Origin: Parcubacteria group bacterium GW2011_GWA2_40_143
GTDB lineage: Bacteria; Patescibacteriota; Minisyncoccia; UBA9983
Assembly: GCA_000996035.1 (NCBI GenBank)
Contig: LBYH01000002.1
Span: 8,979-72,978 of the forward strand
DNA: 64,000 bases
Reading direction: 5' to 3'
Both the position numbers and the translations under genes were made by a program. Below the pieces are notes generated by a model, which saw only the letters and a list, made by a program, of their open reading frames with translations, was not told the DNA's origin and did not search any database. Below, in pieces: positions 5,312 to 48,838 of this stretch (position 1 is its first letter; every line of letters starts with the position of its first letter).

Positions 5312-5339
5312 GGTTTAATCAAAATTAACTTGCCAAAAA

Positions 5340-5966
5340 TTAACTTCCATCCCAACCTTCAAGCTCTCCGGCCGGACTTTCATCATATGTATTATAACTT
5401 CCATCCTCATTTAGAATCTTTCCAGCTGAACCTTCATCGCGATCAATAATAACTTCATTTTTACCATCACCGCTATCGCTTCCACTAGTACTGCTACTAT
5501 CACCAGTACCGCTGCTGCTGGTGCTACTACTGTCGCTGCTATCACTACTACTCGTAACTTCATAATTTTCAAGAGTGTCAATGAATTTAAAGCTTACCAA
5601 TTGAGGGTTTATGGTATAAAGAAGAAGAAACGACGCAAAAGCCAAAAGCAACCCCCAAAGCGCGTTATTGATACGTTCTTTTGCTTTGGTCATTTGACTC
5701 TCGTTGCCACCGCTTGCCATATAGATAATACCGCCAACGGTTATCATCAGCACTGCCAAAAAACCTGCCATAGCCAAAGCAAATTTAAAAATCCAGCCCA
5801 AATATTCTGACAATGTTACATCGTCGCCATCACCGGCGGAAGGGAGTGACTCAAGCAGTGTATATTTCGGTTGAGAAGGCCCAACAAAATCATCATCCGC
5901 GGCCATGGCAAAAAACGGCATTAAACATAAACTTATTAAAATTGTGATAAATATTTTTTTAAACAT
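5340..5966 (-). CDS. Candidate VirB2/TrbC-like pilin with a Ser/Asp-rich C-terminal tail
   Basis: 208 aa; signal peptide 'MFKKIFITILISLCLMPFFAMAAD', then two hydrophobic helices separated by a short polar loop ('WIFKFALAMAGFLAVLMITVGGIIY...NNALWGLLLAFASFLLLY'), then a poly-Ser/Asp tail. Topology matches conjugative pilins. Confidence 0.35.
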   Translation of the reverse strand: MFKKIFITILISLCLMPFFAMAADDDFVGPSQPKYTLLESLPSAGDGDDVTLSEYLGWIFKFALAMAGFLAVLMITVGGIIYMASGGNESQMTKAKERINNALWGLLLAFASFLLLYTINPQLVSFKFIDTLENYEVTSSSDSSDSSSTSSSGTGDSSSTSGSDSGDGKNEVIIDRDEGSAGKILNEDGSYNTYDESPAGELEGWDGS

Positions 5967-6965
5967 TTAAAAATTGATTCTCAGAGAGCTGTTAGCGCTT
6001 TGAGAAATACTCCCGATATCGCCAGATATCAACGCTTTAACATCGGCAAGGCCGGAATCGTCAGCCGCCTTAAAATTAATAATATTACTATTTTCATTCT
6101 GTTGATTTATCTTTTTCCCATTTACCATCCATTTGTAAGTTAAGGCGGGCGGGCTTGATTTAATAAAGTTAAACGCCTCCGCGATCATGGACATATCCCT
6201 TGATGACATATTAAACGTTCTACCCAAAGCTTTTCCAAACAAAATGCCTTTCGTCGGACTATTTTCATAAATAACGGCTTTTGGCTTTACGCCTTGAGAG
6301 GATATTTCTATTGTTTTTTTGTATTTAACGCTTCTGTTTTTATTAGAAACTTCCACGCCAATACTGTATTCTCCATCATCATTCAAACGCACAATAATGC
6401 CTCGCTCGTTAAAGCCGGAAGCTTTTGGAATTTTTTTGTTGTTAACATACCAATCGTAAATAAGCGATGATGGCGACAGTTCAACCCCGCCGGAAAAGAC
6501 ATGAGGAATCGCGTAGAATCTGACGTATGATTTCTTTGCCGGCAAAGCTCTACCTTTATACCAATCCGGCGCGTCCGTGCCGGCTTCCCACAAAAGATCA
6601 ATATCGTCGCCGGAAAAATTCACGGTTTTTGAGACCTCCATTCCCTTGTCTGTAACAATACTCACAACCAAAGAATTGTTTGAGCCGAAATTTGGCGTTA
6701 CAAAATTTATTTTTCTTTTTCCAATGCCATCAGCCACTTTCTTGCCTCCCAGCACCCATGTGATAACGCTTCGGTCCACATCAAACTGATAACTCACAAC
6801 CTCGGCCAAAACTTGAGTCCCCGGCGCCGGATTATTCGGCGTAATTTCAATACTAAAGTCAGAATTAAAAGCATCCGTCTCTATGGCGTAAACTTGAGGA
6901 CTGAAAAGTGACACTAAAATCATCATTGCCAAGAAAATAATCTTATATGAAAAATCTTTCATCAT
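5967..6965 (-). CDS. Secreted hypothetical protein (T4SS-cluster component)
   Basis: 332 aa; cleavable signal peptide 'IIFLAMMILVSLFSPQVYA'; tightly packed between the pilin-like gene and the VirB4 operon. Confidence 0.4.
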   Translation of the reverse strand: MMKDFSYKIIFLAMMILVSLFSPQVYAIETDAFNSDFSIEITPNNPAPGTQVLAEVVSYQFDVDRSVITWVLGGKKVADGIGKRKINFVTPNFGSNNSLVVSIVTDKGMEVSKTVNFSGDDIDLLWEAGTDAPDWYKGRALPAKKSYVRFYAIPHVFSGGVELSPSSLIYDWYVNNKKIPKASGFNERGIIVRLNDDGEYSIGVEVSNKNRSVKYKKTIEISSQGVKPKAVIYENSPTKGILFGKALGRTFNMSSRDMSMIAEAFNFIKSSPPALTYKWMVNGKKINQQNENSNIINFKAADDSGLADVKALISGDIGSISQSANSSLRINF

Positions 6966-6980
6966 TATAAATATATTTTA

Positions 6981-7379
6981 TCATCCAATTTCTTTTATTA
7001 CTATCCTTGCCACGGTGGCGGCAAGATTAATCGGCAAAACCCCCACGAAAAAATCAAAAACGCTGCCAACACCAAGTACCATGAAACTGGCGGTTAATTT
7101 CTTCGGCCCGAAATACAAAAACAACACCAAGCCGAAACACAAGTTAATAACCACGCTTAAATAAGGGATAATGGCAAACAAATCAAAAACAGCCGCCATC
7201 GCGAGCACCGGCCAATACTTGGCAAACCTCGCGCCAAGAGACAATATCGCTTTTGGATTCTTGGCCACAACCGCCGAAGTTACATCTTTAGCCAGCTTGG
7301 CGGCGTTTCTCGCCTGATTGAGCCGACTCGCCTTGCTTTCTTCTTCCGGCGAAATTCCGTTGTTAAAATTATTTTCCAT
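6981..7379 (-). CDS. Small polytopic membrane protein (T4SS-cluster component)
   Basis: 132 aa; at least three hydrophobic segments after a charged N-terminus. Immediately downstream of VirB4. Confidence 0.4.
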   Translation of the reverse strand: MENNFNNGISPEEESKASRLNQARNAAKLAKDVTSAVVAKNPKAILSLGARFAKYWPVLAMAAVFDLFAIIPYLSVVINLCFGLVLFLYFGPKKLTASFMVLGVGSVFDFFVGVLPINLAATVARIVIKEIG

Positions 7380-7389
7380 ATTTTAAAAA

Positions 7390-9210
7390 TCAACCCTGCG
7401 CCATTTTAAATTCCTCCTTGGCCTTTTTTATAGCCAAAAGCTGAGCCGGATCGGAAGTAATAATCTGATCTTCAGTATAAGAAGCCAGTATCTTAATGGC
7501 CACGTGTTTTAAACCGGCAAAGAAGATTCCCTCGCCCACGTCAGACTCAAGCAAGAGGAACTTTTCTTCATCGGTAAGATTAAACGTTTTTTGCACGAGA
7601 TCTATGGTGGCCGGCGATTGCTTGAGAAGAATCTGAATGGAAGAGTTGGTGATAATCGGCACGCCATAAGGAGAATTAAGAAAGTCGCCCACGTCTTGAG
7701 TGATAGTGGCCAAACCAAGATAATATTTTCTGCCTCTTTTGGCCAAACCAAGAAGGAAGGAAGCCGTATCCTCGCTCTTCATCATCCACCACGCCTCATC
7801 TATCACCAACAACCTTTTTTTAATTTCTTTTCTTACTGAATTCCATATAAAATGAGTTACCAAATACATAGCGATTGGTCGCAATTCCGTTTCCATATCT
7901 CTGATGGAAAATACCACCAGTTTTTTATTTATATCCACGTTAGTGGGCTGATTGATAAAACCGGCCCACGTGCCTCTGATATATTTTGCCATTTTTTGCG
8001 TAAGAGACTCGGCGCCTTGCATGCCGGCAAGCACCAGCTCAAGATCAGTAAGCGTGGGCGCGGATATTTTAGAAAAATCGCTGTCCGGCGTAATGTCTTT
8101 AGCGGCGTAAGTTTCCGTAATGGCTCTGTCTATAATGGAATCTTCTTCCGGCGTAAGACCACCAAGCATGAGCCTAAAAAGACCCACCAAAGAAATAATA
8201 TTTGAGCGCAGCACATCGTCCGGCGACTCGTCTTCTCTTACCGGCGGCAGGTCAAATGGATTTATATGATGGTTGGATGTAAGAGAGATATTAAAATATC
8301 TGCCACCCACGGCTTCAGCCAAATACTCGTATTCTCTTTCCGGGTCTATTATCAAAACCTCCGTATCAAACATAAGCGACCGCAGAATCTCCAGCTTCAT
8401 GGCGTAAGATTTGCCGCTGCCGGCTTTGGCAAAAACCACGGAATTGTAATTTTCAAGAGAAAATCTGTCAAAAAGCACGAGACTGTTATTGTGCCTGTTT
8501 ATGCCATAGAGGATGCCTTTATCGGAAGATAGATCAAAAGAAACAAACGGGAAAAGACTTGAGACCGGCGAAGAATTGAGTTGCGTGCCAATATCCAACT
8601 TGTCGGTGCCGAGCGGAAAAACGGTTTCAATGCCCTCCTGTTGTTGGAAGAGGCTTGGTTTAAGGTAAACAAGTTTGGACTCAAGAATAGATTTGATTTC
8701 TCTCTCGGTTTGATTAAGTTCGTCCACATTGTCAGCATATATCGTAATATACAACCCCACGTTAAACAGCTTTTCTTGAGCCTGTTGAAGTTTATCTCTT
8801 AAATCTTCAAGATCCTGATGAGCGGTATCAAGCATAGGATCGCGCACAAAACCTTTTTCTTCTCTTATGCTTATTTGCGATTGCACCTCAGCCACCTTCC
8901 TCTGGAGCTGTCTGAGCACTGTGGCCGTATCTACAGGATGCACGAAAATGGAAATGTCAAAAACCTTATCCAAATTTATAATCGGCGCGAACCAGTTCAT
9001 AGACAAGTATCTGGGATAAGACATCGCGAAAAGAACTCTGGCCACTTTCTCGCCAAGCTTAATATGATTTGAGTTTATTTGAAGCGCTGAAGGAGCGATA
9101 ATATCTTGCAACCGCAAAATACCGGCATTATATATCTCATGCGGAATAACCGGCGTTACTTCGTTTTGCCCACTGATGCTGTCTCTTTTTTTAAATAATC
9201 CTTCTAACAT
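7390..9210 (-). CDS. VirB4/TrbE/CagE-family conjugal transfer ATPase, C-terminal 606-aa portion
   Basis: Walker A 'VVFAKAGSGKSYAMKLE', 'LIIDPEREY', Walker B 'LLVIDEAWWMM', 'ITQDVGD'. In the same frame as the upstream 213-aa ORF, separated from it only by a TAA. Confidence 0.8.
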   Translation of the reverse strand: MLEGLFKKRDSISGQNEVTPVIPHEIYNAGILRLQDIIAPSALQINSNHIKLGEKVARVLFAMSYPRYLSMNWFAPIINLDKVFDISIFVHPVDTATVLRQLQRKVAEVQSQISIREEKGFVRDPMLDTAHQDLEDLRDKLQQAQEKLFNVGLYITIYADNVDELNQTEREIKSILESKLVYLKPSLFQQQEGIETVFPLGTDKLDIGTQLNSSPVSSLFPFVSFDLSSDKGILYGINRHNNSLVLFDRFSLENYNSVVFAKAGSGKSYAMKLEILRSLMFDTEVLIIDPEREYEYLAEAVGGRYFNISLTSNHHINPFDLPPVREDESPDDVLRSNIISLVGLFRLMLGGLTPEEDSIIDRAITETYAAKDITPDSDFSKISAPTLTDLELVLAGMQGAESLTQKMAKYIRGTWAGFINQPTNVDINKKLVVFSIRDMETELRPIAMYLVTHFIWNSVRKEIKKRLLVIDEAWWMMKSEDTASFLLGLAKRGRKYYLGLATITQDVGDFLNSPYGVPIITNSSIQILLKQSPATIDLVQKTFNLTDEEKFLLLESDVGEGIFFAGLKHVAIKILASYTEDQIITSDPAQLLAIKKAKEEFKMAQG

Positions 9211-9225
9211 GGTAACTTGATGAAC

Positions 9226-9867
9226 TTATCTATTCGCCACTCCTTTGCCACTTTCCCCCGGATTATACAGCTCGTAGAAAAGCTCTATAAGCTCTTCCGT
9301 ATTAAGTGGAGCCACTCTTATACCGGCGCGCGCCAGACCTTGTTGCACCACATCCGATCTCTGCTGAAGCTGGATTTTATACTGCTCAAACTTCTCGCCC
9401 ATGGAACCGCTTTTACCGTCACCGGCAATGCCTCCAAACAATTTGCCAAAGCTTCCCTTTTTGACTTCTATGGATACGTTGGTGTATGGCACGGTAATAT
9501 AGAAGGTCTTAGACATCACATTGGTAACTTGCACAAAATTTTTTACGAATTCAGCGTACTCTTTGGTCTGAATCCGCAAAAGCTCATTATCATGACTTTT
9601 TTCCGCTTCGCTTAAAATAGCCAAGTAGGGACCTATATCCAATTTTCTGGATTGAATAAAAAATTGCACCGGAAAATCAAGGGAGTTTAAAAAGTTTTGA
9701 TACTGAAGCACGATGGCGCTCTGTTCTTCTTCAGATTTAAGGGCGAAGTTCAAAGTGGAAGCCATAAGAATCATTCTTAAAGAATTATCTTTAAGAATGA
9801 TTACGCCGTCTCTTATTTCCTTTATCGGCACGAACTCTTGCGTTGATTTTGATGATACCGGTGACAT
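9226..9867 (-). CDS. VirB4 N-terminal domain fragment (Gram-positive TcpF/PrgJ/Orf16-type N-terminus)
   Basis: 213 aa; 'FVPIKEIRDGVIILKDNSLRMILMASTLNFALKSEEEQSAIVLQYQNFLNSLDFPVQFFIQSRKLDI' matches the conserved N-terminal region of Firmicutes-type VirB4. Ends in TAA at 9226-9228, in frame with the next ORF. Confidence 0.65.
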   Translation of the reverse strand: MSPVSSKSTQEFVPIKEIRDGVIILKDNSLRMILMASTLNFALKSEEEQSAIVLQYQNFLNSLDFPVQFFIQSRKLDIGPYLAILSEAEKSHDNELLRIQTKEYAEFVKNFVQVTNVMSKTFYITVPYTNVSIEVKKGSFGKLFGGIAGDGKSGSMGEKFEQYKIQLQQRSDVVQQGLARAGIRVAPLNTEELIELFYELYNPGESGKGVANR

Positions 9868-9891
9868 TTTTTTATTTTACCATACTTTCAA

Positions 9892-10311
9892 TTATTTTAT
9901 CTTACTTTTTATATCCAAACTCCAAGAAAGATCTTTGAGTCGGCTCTTGGTGAGCTTGGGAATAAATTCCTCTTGCATTACTCCTTCTCTTTGCCGTCTC
10001 GCGTCGCTAACGGTAAAACTGGCGGTTTTCATTTTTTCCTTTTTCCAGAGATATATTTTCGGCGAAGCGTAATATTTAAGACCATGCTCCACAATTTTTA
10101 TAAATGGCTGATTGTTTACTTTGTAAAATGCCAACGCTATCACGAAACCGCCTATCGGCAGACCCAAAAAAACCACCACCGGAAATGGCAAAACCACGTA
10201 AAGAAGGAAAATAAGACCCGCGCCGCCGGCAAGGTAAACAAACTGTTTCCATGTAAGCGGCCCAAAAAGCTTACTCTCAATTTCTATAAATTGTGGAACT
10301 TGAAAACGCAT
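9892..10311 (-). CDS. PrgI/TcpE (VirB3-like) small membrane protein
   Basis: 139 aa; two adjacent TM helices 'FVYLAGGAGLIFLLYVVLPFPVVVFLGLPIGGFVIALAF'; sits immediately upstream of VirB4 as in Gram-positive T4SS. Confidence 0.5.
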   Translation of the reverse strand: MRFQVPQFIEIESKLFGPLTWKQFVYLAGGAGLIFLLYVVLPFPVVVFLGLPIGGFVIALAFYKVNNQPFIKIVEHGLKYYASPKIYLWKKEKMKTASFTVSDARRQREGVMQEEFIPKLTKSRLKDLSWSLDIKSKIK

Positions 10312-17553: not shown

Positions 17554-17580
17554 TTGCACCAAGGTTAAACCTTGGTGCAA
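17554..17580. repeat. REP-like perfect palindrome TTGCACCAAGGTT-A-AACCTTGGTGCAA (REP copy 1; partial direct copy at 17543-17553)
   Basis: 27-bp self-complementary sequence overlapping the RAYT 3' end; the same sequence recurs at 18235-18290 and 19325-19350. Confidence 0.8.
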
Positions 17581-18230
17581 TAACTTAGCCAAAAATCAAG
17601 ATATTTTCTAAGCTCCAAAGTATCATCAAAATATTCAGGCAGAACGTTTTTATCTATAATCAATCCTTCTTTTCTTTCTAACCCTAAATAATCAATAAAA
17701 CTGGAGTATTTATATTGTTTTAAAAAATCATCGACTTTATCTTTATTAGAAATACCATTTTCTTTCCAGTGAGGATCGACCATTTTTACCGGATTTAGAT
17801 GAATATAAGCTAAAAGATACTTGAGATGATTGTCGTCATTAGCATGAATAGACTTGAAGCTACTTTCAAAAAGCGAGCCTGTTCTCTCATATTTTTTATT
17901 AAAAAACATAGTATAACCAGTCATCATTTTTTGCATAAACTTACTTACTCCACCCTCCCTAATTTCTTGAACTAGTACATGAAAATGATTGGGCATAAGA
18001 CAATAAGCCGATATCTTCACGATATCATCTTCTTTTTTCAAATTTAAAACACCCTCAAGAGTACTATCGCGCAAGTTGCTTATATGGACAGTGTCTTTAT
18101 TGTTGCAGATATACAAAAGAGAAATAAATCTTTCGTAGTCATCCTTTTTCAAAAAAATTTTTCTCTTATCCGTACCTCTTCCGTATAAGTGATAATTTTC
18201 TCCTATTGAAAAATCAATATTTCTAGCCAT
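17565..18230 (-). CDS. IS200/IS605-like Y1 HUH transposase, REP-associated tyrosine transposase (RAYT)-like
   Basis: 221 aa; HUH motif 'YCLMPNHFHVLVQE'; C-terminal 'AYIHLNPVKMVDP' resembling the RAYT catalytic-Tyr region; flanked on both sides by REP-like palindromes. Confidence 0.7.
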   Translation of the reverse strand: MARNIDFSIGENYHLYGRGTDKRKIFLKKDDYERFISLLYICNNKDTVHISNLRDSTLEGVLNLKKEDDIVKISAYCLMPNHFHVLVQEIREGGVSKFMQKMMTGYTMFFNKKYERTGSLFESSFKSIHANDDNHLKYLLAYIHLNPVKMVDPHWKENGISNKDKVDDFLKQYKYSSFIDYLGLERKEGLIIDKNVLPEYFDDTLELRKYLDFWLSYCTKV

Positions 18231-28929: not shown

Positions 28930-30159
28930 TTATACACTTAACTCTTCTCTCGCCACCGTGGCATCGTCCCACGGTTCTTTGGCGCCGTTTGACCCCATTA
29001 TGTATGGGTCGGTGCCTTTGCCGGTAATTATAACGGCTGGATTTTGGCTGTTGTTTTTAGCCAATTTAGTTATTTTTATAGCCTCTCTTATAGCTTCCCG
29101 CCTATCCATAATTATTTTGGCGCACTTACTGGTAATGCCTTCTTTCATCTCATTTACTATTTTAACAGGATCTTCATCATAAGGATCTTCGTTTGTAAGG
29201 ATGATCTCCGCGCAATACTTACCGGCAATCTCTCCCATTACCTTGCGCTTCCAAGTGTCTCGACCGCCACCCGTATTGCCTAAAACGCAAACAAGTTCAT
29301 GCCGACTCGCTAAGGATTTATATGCCGCTTCCAATGAATCCGGCGTGTGAGCATAATCTATATAAACAGGAAATGCCCCCTCTTCATTTACATTTTCCAT
29401 TCTGCCACGCACGCCTTTAAACTTATCCAAAGCTTTTTGGATTACTTCCTTGTTCAATCCCAAGCCTTCAGCCACGGTGGCGGCGGCAAGCGCGTTGTAA
29501 ATATTAAACTCCCCGATAAGATATGGGACTTTATAGCCCTTGGTGTCGCTCAAAGAATATGCCAACTTCTTATCGGCCGAGACGCTCAAAAAACTTTCCG
29601 CCTCTTTATCATCTTTATTTACCACTAAGACACGCGGTCTTTTGCTTGAACGAGCAAGGGTTCTGGCAATGCTCAGTTTGGCTTGTTTGTATTTCTCATA
29701 AGAACCGTGGCTTTCAATATGCTCCGGTGCCAAATTGGTAAAGATGAGAGCATCCATAGAAATAAATCTCTGGCGAAATTGCTTGGCGCCTTCCGAGGTC
29801 ATTTCCACAATCGTATAATCACATTTATCTCTTACCGCTTTTCTTAAAAACTTTTGGACAAATAGCCGCCCGGGCATAGTCATTTTGAAAAGATTACGTT
29901 CATCCTTATCCCCTATTTTAAAACGCAAAGTGCCTAAAATGGCTGTTTTATAGCCGGCTTCTTCCAAAATGGCATTTACCAGTTCCGCCACCGTAGTTTT
30001 ACCTTTAGTGCCGGTTACACCTATTATTTTAATTTTACGAGAAGGAAAGCCGTAAATCAGCGCGGCTAAAAAGGCCAGAGCGAGATGATAAACCGGCTGA
30101 AAAAATTCAAAAACCGTCTTGGGGATTATTTTGCGGCCAATATTTAGAAGGCTTTCCAT
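28930..30159 (-). CDS. Mur ligase family protein (MurE/MurT-like) with a short N-terminal region
   Basis: 409 aa; 'IIGVTGTKGKTT', 'MTSEGAKQFR', 'FTNLAPEHIESHGSYEKYKQAK', 'YIDYAHTPDSLEAAYKSL'. Confidence 0.65.
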   Translation of the reverse strand: MESLLNIGRKIIPKTVFEFFQPVYHLALAFLAALIYGFPSRKIKIIGVTGTKGKTTVAELVNAILEEAGYKTAILGTLRFKIGDKDERNLFKMTMPGRLFVQKFLRKAVRDKCDYTIVEMTSEGAKQFRQRFISMDALIFTNLAPEHIESHGSYEKYKQAKLSIARTLARSSKRPRVLVVNKDDKEAESFLSVSADKKLAYSLSDTKGYKVPYLIGEFNIYNALAAATVAEGLGLNKEVIQKALDKFKGVRGRMENVNEEGAFPVYIDYAHTPDSLEAAYKSLASRHELVCVLGNTGGGRDTWKRKVMGEIAGKYCAEIILTNEDPYDEDPVKIVNEMKEGITSKCAKIIMDRREAIREAIKITKLAKNNSQNPAVIITGKGTDPYIMGSNGAKEPWDDATVAREELSV

Positions 30160-30271
30160 TTTTTTCTACCATATACTTAAACTCTCTTTAAACTTATTAG
30201 AAATTTTGATTTCGTGGGTATGTTTTAAAGCAATTTAATAAATTCCTCGGTTGTTAAACCTGATTGCAAAT

Positions 30272-30520
30272 TTAGCAAGAAACTTCGGCTGGAATTTTGG
30301 TGATAATGACTTTATTGGATTCAAAAGGAATTTCTTGTTTCAATTCTTTAAGAACTTCCAAACACCCTTCAATGGCGTCCTTGGCCATTATCTCAGCTTC
30401 TTCAAATGTTTCTCCTTGTGTCACACAACATGGAATAGCCGGGATATAAACAATATACCCACCTTCTTCAGCTGGTTCAAATATAGCCGTAAAATTGTAG
30501 ATTTTTTTAACTTTTTTCAT
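30272..30520 (-). CDS. hicB: HicB-like antitoxin (UPF0150/YcfA partner family), orphan
   Basis: 82 aa; 'IYNFTAIFEPAEEGGYIVYIPAIPCCVTQGETFEEAEIMAKDAIEGCLE'. No hicA ORF in any frame within 300 nt on either side. Confidence 0.65.
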   Translation of the reverse strand: MKKVKKIYNFTAIFEPAEEGGYIVYIPAIPCCVTQGETFEEAEIMAKDAIEGCLEVLKELKQEIPFESNKVIITKIPAEVSC

Positions 30521-30608
30521 ATTGCTATTTTAGCACGAAATGATTTTTTTTCATTATTTTCATGCCTATCACTATCAGCGATTTCTGCTTCGCAGAATCG
30601 GGCACATT

Positions 30609-30660
30609 GCAAAGCAGTTTGCCTGCTCATCCCTTGCTACGCTGCGGGATGGGAGAATCG
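30609..30660. repeat. 52-bp direct repeat of the tRNA-Gly 3' end plus downstream flank (att-like scar); the second copy is at 30726-30777
   Basis: GCAAAGCAGTTTGCCTGCTCATCCCTTGCTACGCTGCGGGATGGGAGAATCG occurs twice 117 bp apart. Copy B continues into the intact tRNA; copy A diverges exactly after ...GAGAATCG (the T-arm). Confidence 0.6.
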
Positions 30661-30759
30661 CCTATTGCATAGGCAGGCTGTTTTTGGCCTTACGGCAACA
30701 AAAACACTTTCGATTCTCCACGCAGGCAAAGCAGTTTGCCTGCTCATCCCTTGCTACGC

Positions 30760-30830
30760 TGCGGGATGGGAGAATCGAACTCCCGACCTCGGTTTGGAAA
30801 ACCGATATTATACCATTTAACTAATCCCGC
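30760..30830 (-). tRNA. tRNA-Gly (anticodon UCC), no encoded CCA
   Basis: Cloverleaf read by hand: acceptor GCGGGAT/ATCCCGC, anticodon stem TCGGT/ACCGA, loop TTTCCAA, T-arm GGGAG-TTCGATT-CTCCC. Confidence 0.8.
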
Positions 30831-30900
30831 TTATTTTACAATCCAAATATTATATCTTGAATTTTAAAGCAAAAATTAAATAAAAACAACCACGCAAAAG

Positions 30901-30936
30901 AAAAACCCCTTAATAATTTATATAAGGGGGTTTTCT
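30901..30936 (-). terminator. Bidirectional intrinsic terminator (AAAAACCCC...GGGGGTTTT)
   Basis: G/C stem flanked by A5 and T4-5, immediately downstream of the small Cys-rich ORF on the minus strand. Confidence 0.5.
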
Positions 30937-30949
30937 TAATTAGTCTTGT

Positions 30950-31096
30950 TTAGTTGCAACCGCCGCAAACTCCACAAGCGTCATCTTGGCTACTACTAGC
31001 AGGCTCTTCGCCTGTGGCAGCTCCTTCAGAAGAAGCTTCTCCTCCTTCTGTTGTTTCTGCTCCGGTAGCTTCTGTGTTTATGTTTTGATCTTCCAT
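30950..31096 (-). CDS. Small acidic peptide with a C-terminal Cys motif (MEDQNINTEATGAETTEGGEASSEGAATGEEPASSSQDDACGVCGGCN)
   Basis: 48 codons, has its own terminator, absent from the ORF track (<60 aa). No strong Shine-Dalgarno sequence. Confidence 0.3.
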   Translation of the reverse strand: MEDQNINTEATGAETTEGGEASSEGAATGEEPASSSQDDACGVCGGCN

Positions 31097-31237
31097 TTTA
31101 TTGTTTTTAGCCTTATAAATCCGAATCCTGCCAAAGCAGGATGAGATAATTTAAAGCCGTTTAAATTAAAGCTTTCAATGACGACCTTTTCTACCTTAGT
31201 ATTTATATTATATTCATAAAGACAAAAATGTCAAGGT

Positions 31238-31308
31238 TCGGGCTGCTGGGAATTGAACCCAGTCTACCTGCTCCCAAAGCAGGCGTACTACCGGTATACG
31301 ACAGCCCG
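31238..31308 (-). tRNA. tRNA-Pro (anticodon UGG), no encoded CCA
   Basis: Acceptor CGGGCTG/CAGCCCG (C1-G72, typical of bacterial tRNA-Pro), anticodon stem CCTGC/GCAGG, loop TTTGGGA, T-arm CTGGG-TTCAATT-CCCAG. Confidence 0.75.
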
Positions 31309-31390
31309 CTACAATTTGGCATAATGCCAATAACACAATATCTACTCTACTATATTTAAGACATAATAACCAGCGCATCGTGTTTACTCA

Positions 31391-31765
31391 TCAAAAAACA
31401 TTCTCTGTTATTCTAAATTTAACCTTTCTTTCTTTAAGATTGGCAAAAACAGCGATTACATCTATTTGCCACTCTGTTTCATGTGCAACATTATTTTCCA
31501 TCAGATATGTCTCTATCGCTCGATGTAATCTTTTAATTTTCCAAGGATGAACGTTTTCTTCCGGCATGTAACCATTCTCTTGAGTTTCATATGAAACAGT
31601 TTTAACTTCCACAAAATGAATTGTTTTGTCTTTTTTAGCCACAATATCTATTTCGCCCCATTTTTTACGATAATTAAGGCTTAAAATATTAAACTTTTGT
31701 TTCATAAGAAACTTTTTAGCCATTTTTTCTCCCATGGCTCCGAGCTTTTGTTTTTCGGTTTGCAT
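31391..31765 (-). CDS. yraN: YraN/UPF0102-family endonuclease
   Basis: 124 aa; 'GAMGEKMAKKFL...GEIDIVAKKDKTIHFVEVKTVS'. Confidence 0.8.
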   Translation of the reverse strand: MQTEKQKLGAMGEKMAKKFLMKQKFNILSLNYRKKWGEIDIVAKKDKTIHFVEVKTVSYETQENGYMPEENVHPWKIKRLHRAIETYLMENNVAHETEWQIDVIAVFANLKERKVKFRITENVF

Positions 31766-32121
31766 AGTAATTTTAAACTATTTCTTAAGTAAAAAGTTGC
31801 ACGTGCAACTTTTTATGCTCTTATTTTACCTTTTATCCGATTGTTTCACTGCGTGTGAAACAATCGGATAAAAGGTTGTCATATGAAGAATATCTTTAAT
31901 TAAAAATTTAAATAAAGGCTCTAAATAAGGTTGTTTTTTCTTTTTTTATATTATAAAAGACGAACTATTAGATATTTTATGGTCACTTATTGGACACTCT
32001 ACAAACATCTAATGTACATAACCTGTGGATAGTGTGGATAACTTCTTTATTTTAAGCCTTTTCTAAAAGACGTTATTTCTAACAGACATACATATTTAAA
32101 GGACAAACTCGCTTCATTCGT

Positions 32122-32195
32122 GTGTCCTCGGAGGGACTCGAACCCCCAACAACAGGTTCGAAGCCTGTCATGATATCCATTTCACCACGAGGACA
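32122..32195 (-). tRNA. tRNA-Arg (anticodon UCG), no encoded CCA
   Basis: Acceptor GTCCTCG/CGAGGAC, anticodon stem ACAGG/CCTGT, loop CTTCGAA, T-arm GGGGG-TTCGAGT-CCCTC. End positions are +/-1 nt. Confidence 0.65.
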
Positions 32196-32250
32196 AAATA
32201 TTTTAATCTCCTACCATTTTAACATAAAAGTGCTAAAATAACAGGGAAGT

Positions 32251-33765
32251 ATGAAAGATAAAATAAAAGAGATCCCGGTAATAGTTACAGAGACACTCAC
32301 CGCGCTTACAAGCGCTGGCTTTGAAGCGTATCTGGTGGGTGGGTGCGTAAGAGATCTTCTTTTGGACATAAAGCCTAAAGACTGGGACGTTACCACTAAC
32401 GCCAATCCGGAAGAAATCCAAAAGCTTTATAAAAAAACAGTTTATGAAAATAAATATGGGACAGTTGGGGTTATAAATGAATCAGTAAAGGACATCACAC
32501 TAAGAGAGATCCAAATAACTCCGTATCGGACAGAAACAACATACTCAGACAAAAGAAGGCCGGATAATGTAGTTTTTACTACGGACATTAAAGATGACTT
32601 AAAAAGACGTGACTTCACTATAAATGCCATGGCTTTAAGTCTGCCTAATGTGTCCATTAACGAAAAATCTAAAGGACAAATTGGATATATTCTATTGGAC
32701 ATATTTAATGGACAAGAGGATTTAGCTCAAAAAATCATACGTACCGTAGGCAACCCGAAAGATAGGTTTAATGAAGATGCCCTTAGAATGCTCAGGGCGG
32801 TAAGGCTGGCCTCCGAGCTTGGCTTTAAAGTTTCTCATGAAACAGAAAATGGGATTAAAGAGAACGCTAAGCATATTAAAGAAATCGCCCCTGAAAGAAT
32901 TAAGGACGAGCTGGCAAAAATCATAATGAGTTTTAGAGCCGGCGAGGGGATAAGGATGATGCAATATTACGGCTTGCTTGAATATATAATGCCTGAGCTG
33001 GAAGAGGGTATTGGCATAGAACAAAATAAGGCTCATAAGTTTACCGTATGGGATCACAACATAAAAGCTCTGGAGCACGCAGCCTCTAAAGAAAATTGGC
33101 CTCTTGAAATACGCATGGCGGCGCTTCTGCACGACGTGGGTAAACCAAAATCCAGACGCTGGAGCGAAGAAAAAGGGGATTGGACTTTCTACGGTCATGA
33201 TGTATTAGGCGCCAAGATGGCGACTAAGATGCTTGCTCGTTTGAAGTTTTCCAAAGATACCATTGATTTGGTGGCTAAATTCGTAAGACATCATCTTTTT
33301 TTCTCCGACACGGAAAAAATCACCCTCTCGGCCGTGAGACGCACAGTTAGAAACGTGGGCAAAGATCATGTATGGGATTTAATGAAAGTGCGTTTTGCGG
33401 ATAGAATAGGCATGGGTAGACCAAAGGAAACACCCTACCGGCTAAGGAAGTATGAAGCCATGATAGAAGAAGCAATGCGATCGCCGCTTTCCGTAACCGC
33501 TCTTAAAATAGGCGGCCAAGAGATAATGAAACTTATTAAAATCAATCCCGGGCCGAAAATAGGCTATATTCTGCATATTTTACTGGATGAAGTTCTAGAT
33601 GATCCTAAAAAAAATACTACGGAATATCTACAAAAAAGAACCATTGAACTCGGCGCTCTTGCGGATAAGGATCTGGAAAAACTCGCCAAACAAGCTAAGG
33701 ACAAGAAAAACGAGCTGGAACAAGCCGAAATCAAACAAATCCGCCAAAAATGGTGGGTGAAATGA
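32251..33765 (+). CDS. cca: CCA-adding tRNA nucleotidyltransferase with an HD domain
   Basis: 504 aa; 'GGCVRDLLLDIKPKDWDVTTNA', 'RRDFTINAMAL', HD motif 'LLHDVGKP'. Confidence 0.85.
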   Translation: MKDKIKEIPVIVTETLTALTSAGFEAYLVGGCVRDLLLDIKPKDWDVTTNANPEEIQKLYKKTVYENKYGTVGVINESVKDITLREIQITPYRTETTYSDKRRPDNVVFTTDIKDDLKRRDFTINAMALSLPNVSINEKSKGQIGYILLDIFNGQEDLAQKIIRTVGNPKDRFNEDALRMLRAVRLASELGFKVSHETENGIKENAKHIKEIAPERIKDELAKIIMSFRAGEGIRMMQYYGLLEYIMPELEEGIGIEQNKAHKFTVWDHNIKALEHAASKENWPLEIRMAALLHDVGKPKSRRWSEEKGDWTFYGHDVLGAKMATKMLARLKFSKDTIDLVAKFVRHHLFFSDTEKITLSAVRRTVRNVGKDHVWDLMKVRFADRIGMGRPKETPYRLRKYEAMIEEAMRSPLSVTALKIGGQEIMKLIKINPGPKIGYILHILLDEVLDDPKKNTTEYLQKRTIELGALADKDLEKLAKQAKDKKNELEQAEIKQIRQKWWVK

Positions 33766-35772: not shown

Positions 35773-36864
35773 TTATTTCCTACCTTTTCCATGGAAATTT
35801 TTATGCACATCGCGGAGTTGTTTGTCGGTGATGTGGGTGTAAATCTGGGTGGTGGAGATGCTGGAGTGGCCAAGCATGGTTTGCACCGCACGGATGTCGG
35901 CGCCATTGCCCAGCAGATCCGTGGCAAAGCAATGACGGATAACGTGCGGGGTAACCTTCTTGGAAATACCGGCTTTAATGGCATAACCTTTGATAATCCT
36001 TTCCACCGATCGGGGGGTAAGACGGGAAGAAGGAGTAAGAAAGTTAGTCCCCGTAGGATTTCCCTTATTGTCCGTCCTTAAGGGGAAAACTTTCTTACTC
36101 CTGAATACCTCGCCGGATTTGGAAAGCTGGTTTCCTTGAGAACGGTCATGACGGGAAATTCTCCGGAAACCAGCTTTCCCGAATCTGGCTGACACAAACA
36201 GCGCGTCTTCCGTATCTGTTCTTTTATCTAAATAATTTTTAACCGCTTCCTTAGCACTATCCGACAAGAAAACAACCCTTATCTTGCCACCCTTACCTCT
36301 TATGGAAAATTCACCGGTTTTGGTTTCTTCCAATGTTTCTCTATTTAGAGAGCAAAGTTCGGACACGCGCAAGCCGGTAGAGAAAAGCAGCTCAAGGATG
36401 GCCTTATCGCGCAAACTTCTTAAGTGATTATCGCTTCGGATGGAGGGAGAAAAAGATGCCTCCGTAGAATTTCCCGTCTTAAGCGGCGCGTCCAACAAGC
36501 GCGCCAGTTCTTCCGGCGTTATCAGATCCAAATCGCGCTCCGGCACCTTGGCCAACTCAATCCGCTCAGGCGCGAGCGATTCAATGCCACGTCTGGCCAT
36601 ATATTTAAGAAAGACTCGCAAGGCGATAAGATGATAATTTTGTGTCTTTCTGCTTATCTGTTCGCCGCCCGCTGTTTGAGAACGGTTTAAACGCATTCTG
36701 AATTTACGCACAATGTCGTCTGTAATTTGAGAAGGGGAATTTATCTTTGAGAATTCTAAAAACTTTTTAAGATACCTGTCATAATTTTCAATAGTCTTAA
36801 CGCTTCGCCCTTTTTCCACTTCCAGATATTCTAAAAATTCTCTATGTAGATTATTGATGTTCAT
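35773..36864 (-). CDS. xerD: Tyrosine recombinase XerC/XerD-like with an ~50-aa insertion before the catalytic C-terminus
   Basis: N-terminal 'LEYLEVEKGRSVKTIENYDRYLKKFLEF'; C-terminal 'HVIRHCFATDLLGNGADIRAVQTMLGHSSISTTQIYTH' (R...H..R...Y). Confidence 0.8.
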   Translation of the reverse strand: MNINNLHREFLEYLEVEKGRSVKTIENYDRYLKKFLEFSKINSPSQITDDIVRKFRMRLNRSQTAGGEQISRKTQNYHLIALRVFLKYMARRGIESLAPERIELAKVPERDLDLITPEELARLLDAPLKTGNSTEASFSPSIRSDNHLRSLRDKAILELLFSTGLRVSELCSLNRETLEETKTGEFSIRGKGGKIRVVFLSDSAKEAVKNYLDKRTDTEDALFVSARFGKAGFRRISRHDRSQGNQLSKSGEVFRSKKVFPLRTDNKGNPTGTNFLTPSSRLTPRSVERIIKGYAIKAGISKKVTPHVIRHCFATDLLGNGADIRAVQTMLGHSSISTTQIYTHITDKQLRDVHKNFHGKGRK

Positions 36865-44469: not shown

Positions 44470-45852
44470 ATGCAAACCAACGAAGAAACAAACTACGATC
44501 AACTTTGGAAAGATGTTCTTTCTGAGATAGAGATGACTACATCAAAAACAAGTTTTTCCATGTGGTTTAAGGATACCGGCATTTCAAATTTCAATGATGG
44601 AGTTGTATATATCGGCGTGCCTAATAATTTTGTCAAAGACTGGCTTCTTAATAAATATCATAAATTTATAATTGGCGCTCTTAGAAACAATAATCCGGCT
44701 ATAAGAGGCGTGGATTATATTATTGTTTCTAAAGATCATCAGGACATAATAACTAAAAACACGGCTCCTCATAAGTTTACTTATACCCCAAGTAGCGGCG
44801 AACAGCTTGGTTTTAATGAATTTAACACAGACAAAGAAGCTAATTTAAACCCTAGATACACTTTTGATTCTTATGTGGTGGCGCCTTTTAATGAGATTGC
44901 TCATGCCGCGGCCATAAGTGTGGCAAAAAACCCTGGCAATTTATATAATCCGCTCTTTATTTATGGCGGTGTTGGTCTTGGCAAAACCCATTTACTCCAA
45001 TCCATAGGCAATGAAATGAAGAAAAACAACCCCAGCGCCAAGGTTTATTATCTTACTTCCGAGAAATTCGCCAATGAATATGTTTCTTCCATTCAAAACA
45101 AAACAACCAATTCTTTTAAGGAAAAATATAGAAAATACAATCTTTTAATAGTTGATGATATTCAATTTTTTTCCGATAAATTAAAAATTCAGGAAGAGTT
45201 TTTCCATGTTTTTAACTCTCTTTATGAGTCCGGCAATCAAATTGTGTTTTCTTCCGATAAGTCGCCTCAACATATAGTCGGCCTTGAAGAAAGGTTGAGA
45301 TCAAGATTTGAAGGCGGAATGATGATAGATGTTTCACCTCCTGAATATGAGGAAAGATTGGCTATATTGAAGGTTAAAGTAAGTCAAAAAAACTTTACTT
45401 TAGATGAAGATGTAATTAATTATATCGCTGAAGTTATAAAAGAAAACATAAGAGAGCTTGAGGGAGCGCTTAATTCCATAATAGGCCAATCAAAAATAAG
45501 AGGTAGAATTCTTACCTTAAGTGAAGTTGAAGAAATTTTAAGAAAAAAAATCAAACCTATAAAAGTGGTTGATGCGGAACATGTTATAAAAACAATACTT
45601 AATTACTACAAAATAAACGAAAAAAACCTTACAGAAAGAACGAGAAGAAAGGAAATTGTAAAACCTCGTCAAATAGCCATGTATATTTTAAGAAACGATT
45701 TAAACACTTCTTATCCGCATATAGGTAGAAGATTCGGACAAAAAGATCACACTACCGTAATTCACGCGTACAAAAAAATAAGTGAAGACATAAGAAGAGA
45801 CAAGAAACTTGAGCAAGAGATAAATAACATTAGAGATATTATTTATAAATAA
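44470..45852 (+). CDS. dnaA: Chromosomal replication initiator DnaA
   Basis: 460 aa; 'NPLFIYGGVGLGKTHLLQSIGN', box VII, C-terminal HTH 'IGRRFGQKDHTTVIHAYKKI'. Confidence 0.95.
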   Translation: MQTNEETNYDQLWKDVLSEIEMTTSKTSFSMWFKDTGISNFNDGVVYIGVPNNFVKDWLLNKYHKFIIGALRNNNPAIRGVDYIIVSKDHQDIITKNTAPHKFTYTPSSGEQLGFNEFNTDKEANLNPRYTFDSYVVAPFNEIAHAAAISVAKNPGNLYNPLFIYGGVGLGKTHLLQSIGNEMKKNNPSAKVYYLTSEKFANEYVSSIQNKTTNSFKEKYRKYNLLIVDDIQFFSDKLKIQEEFFHVFNSLYESGNQIVFSSDKSPQHIVGLEERLRSRFEGGMMIDVSPPEYEERLAILKVKVSQKNFTLDEDVINYIAEVIKENIRELEGALNSIIGQSKIRGRILTLSEVEEILRKKIKPIKVVDAEHVIKTILNYYKINEKNLTERTRRKEIVKPRQIAMYILRNDLNTSYPHIGRRFGQKDHTTVIHAYKKISEDIRRDKKLEQEINNIRDIIYK

Positions 45853-46080
45853 AGTGGATAAATATGTGGATAATTTGTTGATAAAAAACATGATTCTAAT
45901 GGACACTAAAAATAATATTTTTTATCCACTTTTAATATTAGTTTTTTACACAAGTTACGCACAATAGAAAAGTTAAAAAAATATTATTTAAAGCCATTTT
46001 TTTAACTTTTCCACTTATCCACATAGTATAATAATAATGAAAAATTTAAATATATTAAAAAATAAAACTATTATAATTAA
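45853..46080. promoter_or_regulatory. oriC downstream region: four DnaA boxes (45853, 45866, 45922, 46015) plus an AT-rich putative unwinding element
   Basis: AGTGGATAA, TGTGGATAA, TTATCCACT, TTATCCACA; >85% AT stretch at 46025-46080 just before dnaN. Confidence 0.7.
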
Positions 46081-47187
46081 ATGAAATTCATCTGCAATAG
46101 ACAAAATTTAAAGGAAGCAATAGGACTTTGTGAAAAAAATACAGGCAAACATGTGAATATGCCTATCTTGAGTGATGTGCTTATTGAGACGGATGGTAAG
46201 TTCGTGAAGTTGTCATCCACCAATCTTGAGGTTGGTTTGGAAATTAAAATAGCCGCCATCGTGGAAGAGGGTGGAAAAGTAGCGGTGCCGGCCAGTGTAA
46301 TTGGCGGTTTTTTATCAAACTTAACCGGAGAGGAAAAAATAACAATAGAATCTCAAAATAGCAATATTGTTATTTCTTCTTTAAACAGCTCTACGATGAT
46401 TAAGAGCCACTCTCCTGAGGAGTTCCCCATAATTCCAAAAATAGATGAGAAAACAGCCGTAGAGGCTCAAATAACCGCATCTGATCTGACACTTGGTCTT
46501 AAGTCTGTGATGTACGCCTGCTCCTTCTCAACTATTAAGCCTGAAATATCTTCTGTCTATATATTTTCCAATAATGGAGAGAATGTTACTTTTGTGGCCA
46601 CTGATTCTTTTCGTTTGGCCGAGAAAAAACTTAATTACCCCATAAATAACTTCGGTCCGATTTTAATTCCAATTAAAACGGTTTTGGAGATAATAAGAAT
46701 TTTTGACGATAAAACCGAAAATTTAAAAATAAGTTTTGATAAAAATCAAATTAATTTTGAGCTTGATAATATAAGATTTATTTCCAGAATAGTGGACGGA
46801 GTTTTTCCTGATTATAAGCAAGTTTTGCCAAAAAGCTTTAAAACAGATGTAATTGTAAATAAAACAGTTTTCACAAATTCTCTTAAAACAACAGGTATTT
46901 TTTCCGGAAAACTTAATGATCTTAATATTTCAATAGATAGTGATAATAATTCAATGATAATTAAGACTCATAATAATGATGTGGGGGAGAGCACCACTAA
47001 AGTGCCTTCTAAAATAAACGGCGAAAGCATGAAAGCGACTTTTAACCATAAATATATTTTTGATTGTTTATCAAGTATAAGTTCAGATGAGATTATTTTA
47101 AGATTTTCCGGTGAAGGTAAGCCGCTCGTTATAAGTGGCGCTAATGATGGCAGTTTCCAATATTTGGTAATGCCGATGAATGTTTAA
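46081..47187 (+). CDS. dnaN: DNA polymerase III beta sliding clamp
   Basis: 368 aa; three-domain clamp; begins 'MKFICNRQNLKEAIGLCEKNTGKHVNMPILSDVLIE'. Confidence 0.9.
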   Translation: MKFICNRQNLKEAIGLCEKNTGKHVNMPILSDVLIETDGKFVKLSSTNLEVGLEIKIAAIVEEGGKVAVPASVIGGFLSNLTGEEKITIESQNSNIVISSLNSSTMIKSHSPEEFPIIPKIDEKTAVEAQITASDLTLGLKSVMYACSFSTIKPEISSVYIFSNNGENVTFVATDSFRLAEKKLNYPINNFGPILIPIKTVLEIIRIFDDKTENLKISFDKNQINFELDNIRFISRIVDGVFPDYKQVLPKSFKTDVIVNKTVFTNSLKTTGIFSGKLNDLNISIDSDNNSMIIKTHNNDVGESTTKVPSKINGESMKATFNHKYIFDCLSSISSDEIILRFSGEGKPLVISGANDGSFQYLVMPMNV

Positions 47188-48155: not shown

Positions 48156-48386
48156 ATGAAAATTAAATTCAGACCAACGCTATTTTGGGATGTAAACCCC
48201 AAGAAAATAGATCCAAAAAAGAACGCTCAATATGTCATTGAGCGTATTGCCGATTTCGGTAACGATAAAGAGGCGCGCTGGGCATTAAATCATTATGACA
48301 AAAATTTATTGAGAAAGGCCATTGCTAAATCAAGATGCCTGCGACCTGAAACAAAAAAATTATGGACGCTTCTGATCAAAAAATAA
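48156..48386 (+). CDS. Small protein, putative partner (antitoxin-like) of the downstream nucleotidyltransferase-fold protein
   Basis: 76 aa; overlaps the next ORF by 25 nt (operon coupling). No family recognised. Confidence 0.3.
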   Translation: MKIKFRPTLFWDVNPKKIDPKKNAQYVIERIADFGNDKEARWALNHYDKNLLRKAIAKSRCLRPETKKLWTLLIKK

Positions 48387-48838
48387 ATCTGAAGAAAAAG
48401 CTTGCTTCTTATGGTTTAAACTGGCATTATGAAATTTTACCTCGCCAAACCAAGAAAGCCTTGATGTTTTTATCCGAGGAAAAATGGCTTAAAGAATCAA
48501 ACTGGTATCTTGCTGGCGGGACGGCGTTAGTGCTTCAAGCCAGAGACATCGCTGTTATGAAAATAACCGCCATCTCTCAAAGAGGAAGAAAGAGGGACTT
48601 TTTTGATCTCTACTGGTGCGCTAAAAACATAGAGCCATTAGAAGAAATTATCAAACGGCTTAAAGTCCAGTATCCGTCAGTGGCGCATGATTATCACCAT
48701 ATTTTAAAAAGTCTGGTCTATTTTGAAGACGCGGAAAGCGACCCTGAGCCGGAAATAAATTTTGACACAGGCTGGAAAAAGGTGAAAAATTTTTTCATTA
48801 AAGAAATACCGGAAATTGCGGATAAGATAATGAAGTAA
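48362..48838 (+). CDS. Nucleotidyltransferase-fold protein, AbiEii/DUF1814-like (short)
   Basis: 158 aa; 'WYLAGGTALVLQARD' resembles the AbiEii 'KGGTAL' motif; 'RKRDFFDLYW'. Confidence 0.35.
   Translation: MDASDQKINLKKKLASYGLNWHYEILPRQTKKALMFLSEEKWLKESNWYLAGGTALVLQARDIAVMKITAISQRGRKRDFFDLYWCAKNIEPLEEIIKRLKVQYPSVAHDYHHILKSLVYFEDAESDPEPEINFDTGWKKVKNFFIKEIPEIADKIMK

Follow-up and report, generated by a model that had tools for sequence, protein, structure and literature searches.

Organization of the tRNA-Gly locus

The stretch of DNA analysed in this study (the window) comprises 64,000 nucleotides (nt) of Parcubacteria group bacterium GW2011_GWA2_40_143 (contig LBYH01000002.1). The locus of interest is its tRNA-Gly(UCC) gene, together with a small non-coding palindromic module, designated E, attached to the 3' end of this gene. 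The features of the locus are listed below, from the tRNA gene onwards.

30760-30830, minus strand: tRNA-Gly(UCC) gene, intact, without an encoded CCA and with the T-stem pair G49:C65 (ARAGORN; Rfam RF00005, 70 bits)
30726-30777, minus strand: proximal copy of a 52-nt repeat (copy B), consisting of tRNA nucleotides 56-73 (t18, 30760-30777) and the first 34 nt of E (T34, 30726-30759)
30643-30759, minus strand: complete module E, 117 nt, with a linker, P1 5' strand, H1, P2 5' strand, H2, H3 and a t18 copy (nhmmer 116 bits; covariance model R1 128 bits)
30609-30642, minus strand: truncated second unit (T34), which breaks off inside H1 and joins sequence Z, and which together with 30643-30660 forms copy A of the repeat (nhmmer partial match, model positions 8-40)
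30521-30608: sequence Z, which contains a t18-like hairpin
30579-30600, minus strand: the Z hairpin, CGATTCTGC-GAA-GCAGAAATCG, a t18-like 9-mer (8/9) followed by its own complement
30272-30520, minus strand: open reading frame (ORF) for a HicB-like antitoxin, 82 aa, a neighbour outside the module (Pfam PF15919, 35 bits)
28930-30159, minus strand: Mur ligase gene

A repeat search of the window reported a single exact 52-nt direct repeat, at 30609-30660 and 30726-30777, with a period of 117 nt. This confirms the duplication at tRNA-Gly described in an earlier note on this DNA as an exact 52-bp repeat, 117 bp apart. The composition given there, 17 nt of tRNA and 35 nt of flank, is corrected here to 18 nt of tRNA sequence (from C56, in the T-loop, through the discriminator base A73) and 34 nt of trailer, and the spacer between the copies measures 65 nt (30661-30725) instead of 64. 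The palindrome said to open the spacer is found at 30661-30673 (CCTATTGCATAGG), and the divergence of copy A inside the T-arm was also borne out: the similarity to the tRNA ends exactly within the T-loop. No further copies of the 18-nt tRNA part or the 34-nt trailer part were found in the window at up to three mismatches, and two matches of the repeat parts were reached in 0 of 100 shuffles. Among the tRNAs of the window this arrangement of tRNA-end copies is unique to tRNA-Gly; nothing comparable was found at tRNA-Pro or tRNA-Arg.

The two neighbouring genes named in the earlier note, an orphan hicB and a Mur ligase gene, are both present. No hicA follows hicB, since the 112-nt gap between hicB and the Mur ligase gene holds no ORF (greedy map of ORFs of at least 70 aa). 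In relatives, hicBA pairs occupy the position that hicB has in the window. The possibility that hicB(A) is cargo was rejected, as no distal tRNA fragment was found beyond hicB or hicBA in the window or in the related contigs L027 and L029.

Anatomy of module E

The 52-nt repeat is the overlap of successive copies of module E, which is about 117 nt long. Module E consists of the trailer, the spacer and a second tRNA end, and measures 117 nt in the window and 104-148 nt in other lineages. It begins immediately 3' of the discriminator base and leaves the tRNA gene intact. In the window a complete E is followed by the opening 34 nt of another; the 34-nt "flank" in the 52-mer is thus not host flank, because it is the start of the next unit. 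E has a GC content of about 52%, against 24-30% in its flanks. The parts of the complete unit, in 5' to 3' order, are as follows.

30751-30759, minus strand: linker GCGTAGCAA, 9 nt, variable in length and sequence among lineages, with a CG(A/T)AG motif
30745-30750, minus strand: P1 5' strand GGGATG, which does not vary among the four full-length E lineages and is the reverse complement of CATCCC (tRNA nt 65-70)
30722-30743, minus strand: H1, a perfect 9-bp hairpin GCAGGCAAA-CTGC-TTTGCCTGC, with stem and loop invariant in the four full-length E lineages
30711-30719, minus strand: P2 5' strand GGAGAATCG, the reverse complement of tRNA nt 56-64 (CGATTCTCC)
30679-30706, minus strand: H2, a variable hairpin (TGTTTTTG..GCC-GTAA-GGC..CAAAAACA), with three pairs changed on both sides relative to L010/L025
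30661-30673, minus strand: H3, hairpin CCTAT-GCA-ATAGG, the plus strand of which is the palindrome of the earlier note
30643-30660, minus strand: the final 18 nt of E, a distal direct copy of tRNA nt 56-73 (t18) that supplies the 3' strand of P2 as well as that of P1

The predicted fold of E is one branched hairpin (-51.4 kcal/mol, z = -4.9), in which the distal tRNA-end copy pairs with both antisense blocks to give helices P2 and P1. The tRNA-end copies at the locus are arranged in the order direct-inverted-direct, and the inverted copy of the tRNA 3' end (nt 56-70; GGGATG...GGAGAATCG) is interrupted by H1. Of 20000 shuffles, 127 (0.6%) gave a stretch of 9 nt or more that is antisense to the tRNA end. 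Terminal inverted repeats of the type found in miniature inverted-repeat transposable elements (MITEs) are present, with GGGATG...GGAGAATCG on the left and CGATTCTCC-CATCCC on the right; they are 15 nt long and the left arm is the one interrupted by H1. The 52-nt repeat stops 4 nt short of the end of the H1 3' strand, and H1 occurs once in the window at up to three mismatches. The core sequence of E is GAGCAGGCAAACTGCTTTGCCTGCGTGGAGAATCG, and a gapped pattern for the module is GAGAATCGAA-N(40-90)-CGATTCTCC. The Z hairpin beyond the truncated unit is possibly a decayed older unit.

The earlier note had considered a decayed second tRNA-Gly gene upstream of copy A. No direct tRNA body is present there, but inverted tRNA-derived sequence is (the P2 5' strand and GGGATG); ARAGORN and the Rfam tRNA model call only the real tRNA, which argues against a tRNA pseudogene. 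No integrase, transposase or other gene lies inside E. A 36-aa ORF (30637-30747, minus strand) is in frame in L010; it was rejected as a small protein for lack of a ribosome-binding site, and also since its substitutions are non-conservative yet structure-preserving and several frames are open. A scan of 29000-33000 with Rfam 15 (E-value limit 1) returned three tRNAs and weak unrelated matches, none of them on 30609-30759, and a hammerhead-like GAUGAG-stem-CG noticed by eye was dropped in the absence of Rfam support.

In the earlier note the two 52-mers were taken for attL and attR, the scar of an integration. According to this explanation they would be the ends of a tyrosine-integrase element that integrated in the T-loop of tRNA-Gly and lost its interior, or a minimal att-only element moved in trans by an integrase encoded elsewhere, and the core of E would supply arm sites for an integrase or accessory protein. 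Integrative elements can form tandem arrays at their att sites, which is in its favour. So is the displaced tRNA fragment, which runs from C56 to the 3' end, the classic block of integrases that target the T-loop: tyrosine-integrase islands and prophages in tRNA genes are the subject of the Islander model (PMC4383910), and attB of Ms6 lies in the T-loop of tRNA-Ala (PMC1762012). With such islands and prophages E has in common an intact tRNA gene, a distant direct copy from the T-loop to the discriminator and empty sites in relatives. It differs from them in that the insert is 99-130 nt long, non-coding, devoid of an integrase, tandemly reiterated and furnished with an inverted tRNA-end copy; furthermore, the sequence beside the distal fragment is unconserved and the repeat extends into the element (T34) instead of the host flank. 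No integrase was found within or next to the repeats, and the only tyrosine recombinase of the window is of the Xer type and lies 5 kb away among conserved host genes:

35773-36864, minus strand: Xer-type tyrosine recombinase, 363 aa, with the match to the XerC/XerD model split in two, implying an insertion of about 50 aa

Module E in other lineages

Four other lineages of Paceibacteria were found to carry one or two E units at the same place (L010, L024, L025/L026 and L039). L010, a different organism, was found by a single metagenome scan with a pattern that carried a window-specific prefix, while L024 and L025 were recovered through a protein-database search with six-frame translations of E (two spurious ORFs). 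Six-frame translations of E compared with a library of 1.84 billion representative proteins gave nothing useful. In L010 the tRNA-Gly gene is followed by a 123-nt E ending in CGATTCTCCCGTCCCGCA, and then by its own flank and murE. L024 contains two tandem units of 148 nt, different at 2 positions and followed by an intrinsic terminator, with different neighbouring genes. L025/L026 contains one unit of 136 nt. L039 contains a short variant of 104 nt without GGGATG (P1) and H1, and thus part of the core is missing.

A 42-nt core (GGGATGAGCAGGCAAACTGCTTTGCCTGCGTGGAGAATCGAA) is 100% identical in the four full-length lineages (the window, L010, L024 and L025), and the architecture of E is predicted independently in each of them. 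Two sequence types were found for H2 and H3: subtype A (the window, L010 and L025) and subtype B (L024 and L039). Within each subtype the stems change on both sides, at three pairs in H2 and two pairs in H3. The compensatory-change score, which is based on few sequences, was reached by shuffles in 21 of 500 and 60 of 500 trials; covariation is uninformative for P1, H1 and P2, because none of them ever varies.

These results bear on the proposal of an att scar. Nothing coding lies between the repeats, the supposed flank is the start of the next 117-nt unit and the spacer is part of a module conserved in four lineages; what stands of the earlier note is the displaced copy of the tRNA from the T-loop to the end and the existence of empty sites. 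All five lineages carry only the 104-148-nt form, and no larger relative was found among viral contigs, phages and plasmids. A tyrosine-recombinase core site needs a half-site beside the crossover. Just 5' of the distal t18, subtype A has AATAGG and subtype B has TGTGAC, compared with GGAGTT in the tRNA; this lack of conservation beside the distal fragment speaks against a core site at this point. A displaced host end should be of the resident (T65) type, which the distal fragments are not, and compensatory evolution of hairpins is not expected of att arms. Overall, we consider an att scar very improbable.

E could instead be a structured trailer RNA of tRNA-Gly that is useful to the host, with a 3' end mimicking the acceptor/T-arm helix, inherited vertically and repeatedly lost. 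Possible roles for such an RNA are a processing signal that sets the 5' end of the downstream murE or hicB message, in the manner of plant mitochondrial t-elements, a decoy or sponge for a factor recognising the tRNA-Gly 3' end, or a regulator of tRNA-Gly maturation. E always lies on the tRNA strand directly after the tRNA, and in L024 the terminator follows the E array and not the tRNA. The 42-nt core is identical, including the unpaired loop and junction bases, in spite of MurE identities of 50-55%. Compensatory changes keep the hairpins, and the z-scores of the folds are about -5. In relatives the tRNA-Gly gene abuts murE (at a distance of 2 nt in L017), so that the tRNA 3' cut probably creates the 5' end of the mRNA. 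On the other side, E has very few G-U pairs and its sense and antisense strands fold equally well, unlike most functional RNAs; no Rfam family matches it; and the L039 variant lacks P1 and H1. The comparison of sense and antisense folding was itself found uninformative as a discriminator between RNA and DNA.

Searches with nhmmer and a covariance model found full copies of E only behind tRNA-Gly. In L024 a decayed paralogue of E lies directly after tRNA-Pro (3474-3600, plus strand), with about 70% identity to the E found at tRNA-Gly in this contig. It retains H1 with one compensatory change from A-U to C-G and has no clean distal tRNA-end copy; the tRNA-Pro that bears it has the T-loop sequence TTCGATTCTC in common. 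We make no claim that the antisense arms of this paralogue are adapted to tRNA-Pro, as the apparent match is mostly inherited sequence. The tRNA genes encode no CCA, and a CCA follows the distal tRNA-end copy in L024 (about 2355-2350) and L025 (about 918-916), on the minus strand in both. An origin from mature tRNA was not adopted on this basis: the observation is not significant, since the unit shares "CC", and may be due to chance, the L024 unit itself already ending in CC.

Distribution among relatives and copy number within species

The check for empty sites proposed in the earlier note was carried out, and relatives with the same synteny and without E were found (L017, L023, L027, L029, L034/35 and L040-42). 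At the empty site of L017, the tRNA-Gly gene is followed by AA and then by the ATG of murE. Comparison of the neighbouring protein UPF0102 revealed that E-positive L025 is 94-95% identical to E-negative L017 and L029, to which the window is only about 64% identical. The MurE tree has two clades with 50-55% identity between them; E-positive and E-negative members are found in each clade, and so are both E subtypes. Analysis of the tRNA itself revealed the T-stem GGGAG/CTCCC (G49:C65) in E-positive tRNA-Gly genes (5/5) and AGGAG/CTCCT (A49:U65) in all E-negative tRNA-Gly genes examined.

In the closest other species (L021, MurE 91-92% identical) the contig begins at the very end of the 52-mer, with CTTTGC, and then carries a tandem pair of Z-like units, each about 82 nt long, before murE (L021 1-156); hicB is absent. 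Since L021 has CTTTGC and then Z-like units, the T34-Z junction predates the split of the window species and L021.

Exact-protein look-ups with the neighbouring HicB and Mur ligase proteins identified contigs of the same species with 0-2 substitutions relative to the window over 4-8 kb (99.95-100% identical). As assembled, these contigs differ in the number of E units. GCA_003488385.1 reads tRNA-X-Z and contains no complete E (one 52-mer); the window, GCA_003521755.1 and a MEGAHIT contig assembled at k=141 read tRNA-X-Y-X-Z and contain one complete E; ERZ28564009 reads tRNA-X-Y-X-Y-X-Z and contains two complete E units (three 52-mers at 117-nt spacing). The complete units of the same-species alleles are all identical, while the two tandem units of L024 are distinguishable by single-nucleotide polymorphisms. 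With these assembly-based copy numbers, E forms head-to-tail units of strain-variable number, as tandem repeats do.

Head-to-tail order, a 117-nt period and a copy number that differs between near-identical strains are features of minisatellites, or variable number tandem repeats. E differs from them in that the unit is structured, conserved across genera and anchored to a tRNA gene. The locus could have arisen by local accident alone, if the T-arm hairpin seeded a tandem or tandem-inversion duplication that persisted as a functionless, immobile and variable minisatellite; the direct-inverted-direct arrangement of the tRNA ends and the unstable copy number speak for such an accident. The same module, with an identical 42-nt core, is nevertheless present in hosts with 50-55% MurE identity and different gene neighbourhoods, and its hairpins evolve by compensatory changes. 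A local accident is strongly disfavoured because the module is conserved across species, and we rate it as highly improbable.

The distribution also counts against a host-useful trailer RNA: E is missing from relatives that are 94-97% identical in a neighbouring protein, zero, one or two complete units occur within one species, and the subtypes do not track the host tree. Weighing these points together with those on its structure, we regard a host-useful RNA as the main alternative, albeit a rather unlikely one.

Comparison with known mobile elements

Small palindromic selfish repeats include MITEs, Rickettsia palindromic elements, and the GC clusters and double-hairpin elements of fungal mitochondria. 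E is like them in being short, GC-rich relative to its host, hairpin-forming, non-coding and patchy, and in leaving a working host gene; in related loci it also has as neighbour a polymorphic GIY-YIG insertion with a tRNA-end duplication of its own. It differs in occupying one locus per window, the tRNA-Gly 3' end (plus one decayed tRNA-Pro copy), in having an 18-nt tRNA-end terminal repeat instead of a short target duplication, and in its invariant core. A test of E as a MITE found no dispersed copies, with a single locus in the window and in each relative, and a flanking repeat that is 18 nt of the tRNA.

A second class of hairpin modules comprises repetitive extragenic palindromic (REP) sequences and bacterial interspersed mosaic elements (BIMEs), with their REP-associated tyrosine transposases (RAYTs), and the palindrome-associated transposable elements (PATEs) derived from the IS200/IS605 family. 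E resembles them as a hairpin module in a window that also holds a RAYT-like Y1 gene; it differs in being undispersed and without copies flanking that gene, and in its long terminal duplication, which that family does not have. The gene in question is:

17565-18230, minus strand: IS200-like Y1 transposase-like ORF, 221 aa, with ksgA on one side and an unknown gene on the other (Pfam Y1_Tnp 40 bits; NCBIfam REP-associated tyrosine transposase 45 bits, cut-off 80)

E might be a small PATE-like element with hairpin ends, of the IS200/IS605 or REP type, moved as single-stranded DNA by a Y1/HUH transposase acting in trans, for example the RAYT-like product of this ORF. The subterminal hairpins of such an element would be H1 and H3, and ...CCGCA would serve at each boundary as the site of cleavage or the target. 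The presence in the window of an ORF resembling Y1_Tnp and REP-associated transposases is consistent with this, as is the position of the hairpins, which lie about 16-17 nt in from the boundaries; under DNA parameters the two strands fold equally well (z about -6), and the linker has a G(T/A)AG motif. The RAYT match of 45 bits, however, falls far short of the cut-off of 80; H1 has no second copy in the window and is absent near the Y1 gene; no REP-like hairpins were seen around this ORF and no related hairpins among the inverted repeats of the window. Elements of the IS200/IS605-REP family do not generate an 18-nt terminal duplication, H1 is missing from the L039 variant, and E is not dispersed. 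We judge an element of this type decidedly improbable, and the assignment of H1, H3 and CCGCA to its ends equally so.

Searches for relatives of E in viral, phage and plasmid collections gave no match. Viral contigs contained no match for the 24-mer of Y, the 22-mer of the trailer, the 35-mer of the core or the gapped pattern, and phage and plasmid collections contained none by blastn. Larger relatives of E were likewise absent from the viral-contig, phage and plasmid collections; the genome and metagenome collections were scanned once each, with a window-specific pattern in the case of the metagenomes. The literature search returned papers on the standard integrase model (PMC4383910, PMC1762012) and none that describes such a module. 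E is apparently an undescribed small accessory element.

Other features of the locus and of the window

The region from tRNA-Gly through E and hicB(A) or other cargo to murE appears to be an insertion hot spot in this clade. In L010 (minus strand, about 671-292) and L027 (700-1135) an ORF of about 90 aa for a GIY-YIG protein is inserted just upstream of the intact tRNA-Gly gene, preceded by hairpins and a duplicated 5' part of tRNA-Gly (about 34 nt). L029 has an identical MurE protein and lacks this insertion. This second insertion at the locus is thus polymorphic, and the end of tRNA-Gly that it duplicates is the opposite one. In L010 it holds an inverted H1-like motif (AGCAAAGCAGTTTGGC). No GIY-YIG homologue was found in the window by tblastn.

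A 48-aa ORF ending in ...DDACGVCGGCN is present in the window (30950-31096, minus strand) and is followed by a hairpin and a T-run (30897-30940). Small ORFs with such a C-terminal cysteine motif (D-x-C-x-x-C-G-G-C) occur just upstream of tRNA-Gly in L010, L017, L025, L029, L034, L039 and L040, and have no Pfam match. A GC-rich hairpin of about 42 nt (CCTGCCCGC...GCGGGCGG) occurs in the 3' end of the Cys-peptide gene, before tRNA-Gly, in L025 (about 1230-1185, minus strand) and L029 (1148-1190), and is absent in L017 and L034. Close to their N-terminus, the MurE relatives P0129, P0133, P0134, P0138 and P0160 carry an in-frame insertion of 19 aa (TTRVLPISTLASLVRNFGR), in which the N-x-G-R just before it recurs; a coding gene thus appears to have gained a small insertion with a duplication.

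Further features of the window are listed below.

134-10311, minus strand: type IV secretion- or conjugation-like run with a coupling-protein-like ATPase, a TraC/VirB4-like ATPase, PrgI and a type IV secretion system pilin, and with ssb and rpsF inside it
31207-31234, minus strand: perfect sigma-70 consensus TTGACA-16-TATAAT, directly downstream of tRNA-Pro and upstream of the Cys-peptide ORF
31828-31876: perfect 22-bp inverted repeat with a 5-nt spacer (ACCTTTTATCCGATTGTTTCAC / GTGAAACAATCGGATAAAAGGT), between tRNA-Arg and the UPF0102 gene
32251-33765: gene for the CCA-adding enzyme
44470-47187: dnaA-dnaN, so that the replication origin is probably nearby
48156-48838: DUF6922 / AbiEii-type toxin-antitoxin pair

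Interpretation and significance

Taken together, our analysis suggests that E is a gene-less accessory palindromic module, probably mobile, that recombines into the 3' end of tRNA-Gly and shifts its copy number through its repeats; we give this interpretation an even chance of being correct. E would be a horizontally moving element, selfish or near-neutral. An accessory mobile element is favoured by the patchy occurrence of E among very close relatives, by the differences in copy number within a species and by subtypes that ignore the host phylogeny. The tRNA-Pro paralogue, the GC-rich palindromic build and the terminal copy of the target's own end favour it as well. Entry may occur by recombination, with the conserved tRNA gene as one anchor and E's own tRNA-end copy as the other; recombination anchored in this manner would explain why E is always found at tRNA-Gly and why the E-positive genes share G49:C65. 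Once in place, the number of copies would grow or shrink by unequal recombination or slippage between the direct repeats of 18-52 nt.

E is probably transcribed together with tRNA-Gly. Co-transcription is expected since E sits between the tRNA and the terminator in L024, and between the tRNA and murE in L010 and L039. The tRNA 3'-processing enzyme RNase Z would then probably cut E away, which is plausible because each unit ends in what is modelled as an acceptor/T-arm-like helix with a discriminator. With E cut away, the insertion would spare both the tRNA and the downstream murE message. Similar signals are known from plant mitochondrial t-elements (PMC1920247) and from RNAs of the mascRNA type (MALAT1-associated small cytoplasmic RNA), where a downstream mimic of the acceptor/T-arm with a discriminator could likewise be cut by RNase Z. 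E differs from these tRNA-like signals in having no cloverleaf, in not being called by ARAGORN or the Rfam tRNA model, and in a branched helix of 15 bp instead of 12 bp. E may be a new type of self-effacing parasite of tRNA genes, which uses the universally conserved tRNA-Gly sequence to reach further genomes by recombination and is in effect an "intron" spliced by RNase Z, or its release may yield a tRNA-Gly 3'-end mimic of about 115 nt with a function of its own; we think this unlikely.

Several points weigh against the interpretation of E as a mobile accessory module. E is confined to a single locus in the window and is not dispersed like a typical MITE or REP, and no enzyme could be assigned to its movement. 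The 52-nt repeat forms a loop in a de Bruijn graph and short-read assemblies can mis-resolve its copy number, for which reason the alleles with one and three copies of the 52-mer are not proven; the two-copy state is supported, as k=141 exceeds the 117-nt period. The sample consists of five E-positive lineages, and the pattern of the sole metagenome scan had a prefix specific to the window. The invariant core, unpaired bases included, and the maintained hairpins fit a host-useful RNA equally well, and repeated loss could also give a patchy distribution.

Genomes of the Candidate Phyla Radiation (CPR)/Patescibacteria are very small, and repeats and mobile DNA are thought to be scarce in them. 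E would confound island finders that read tRNA fragments as att sites, and it constitutes a candidate unannotated RNA. If the proposed excision at the RNA level is true, bacterial tRNA-processing enzymes would be exploited to excise foreign sequence, comparable to the "tRNA punctuation" of organelles. If the interpretation of E as a mobile accessory module is true, E would be a new small player in the genome dynamics of CPR/Patescibacteria: conserved, gene-less, variable in copy number and targeted to one tRNA.

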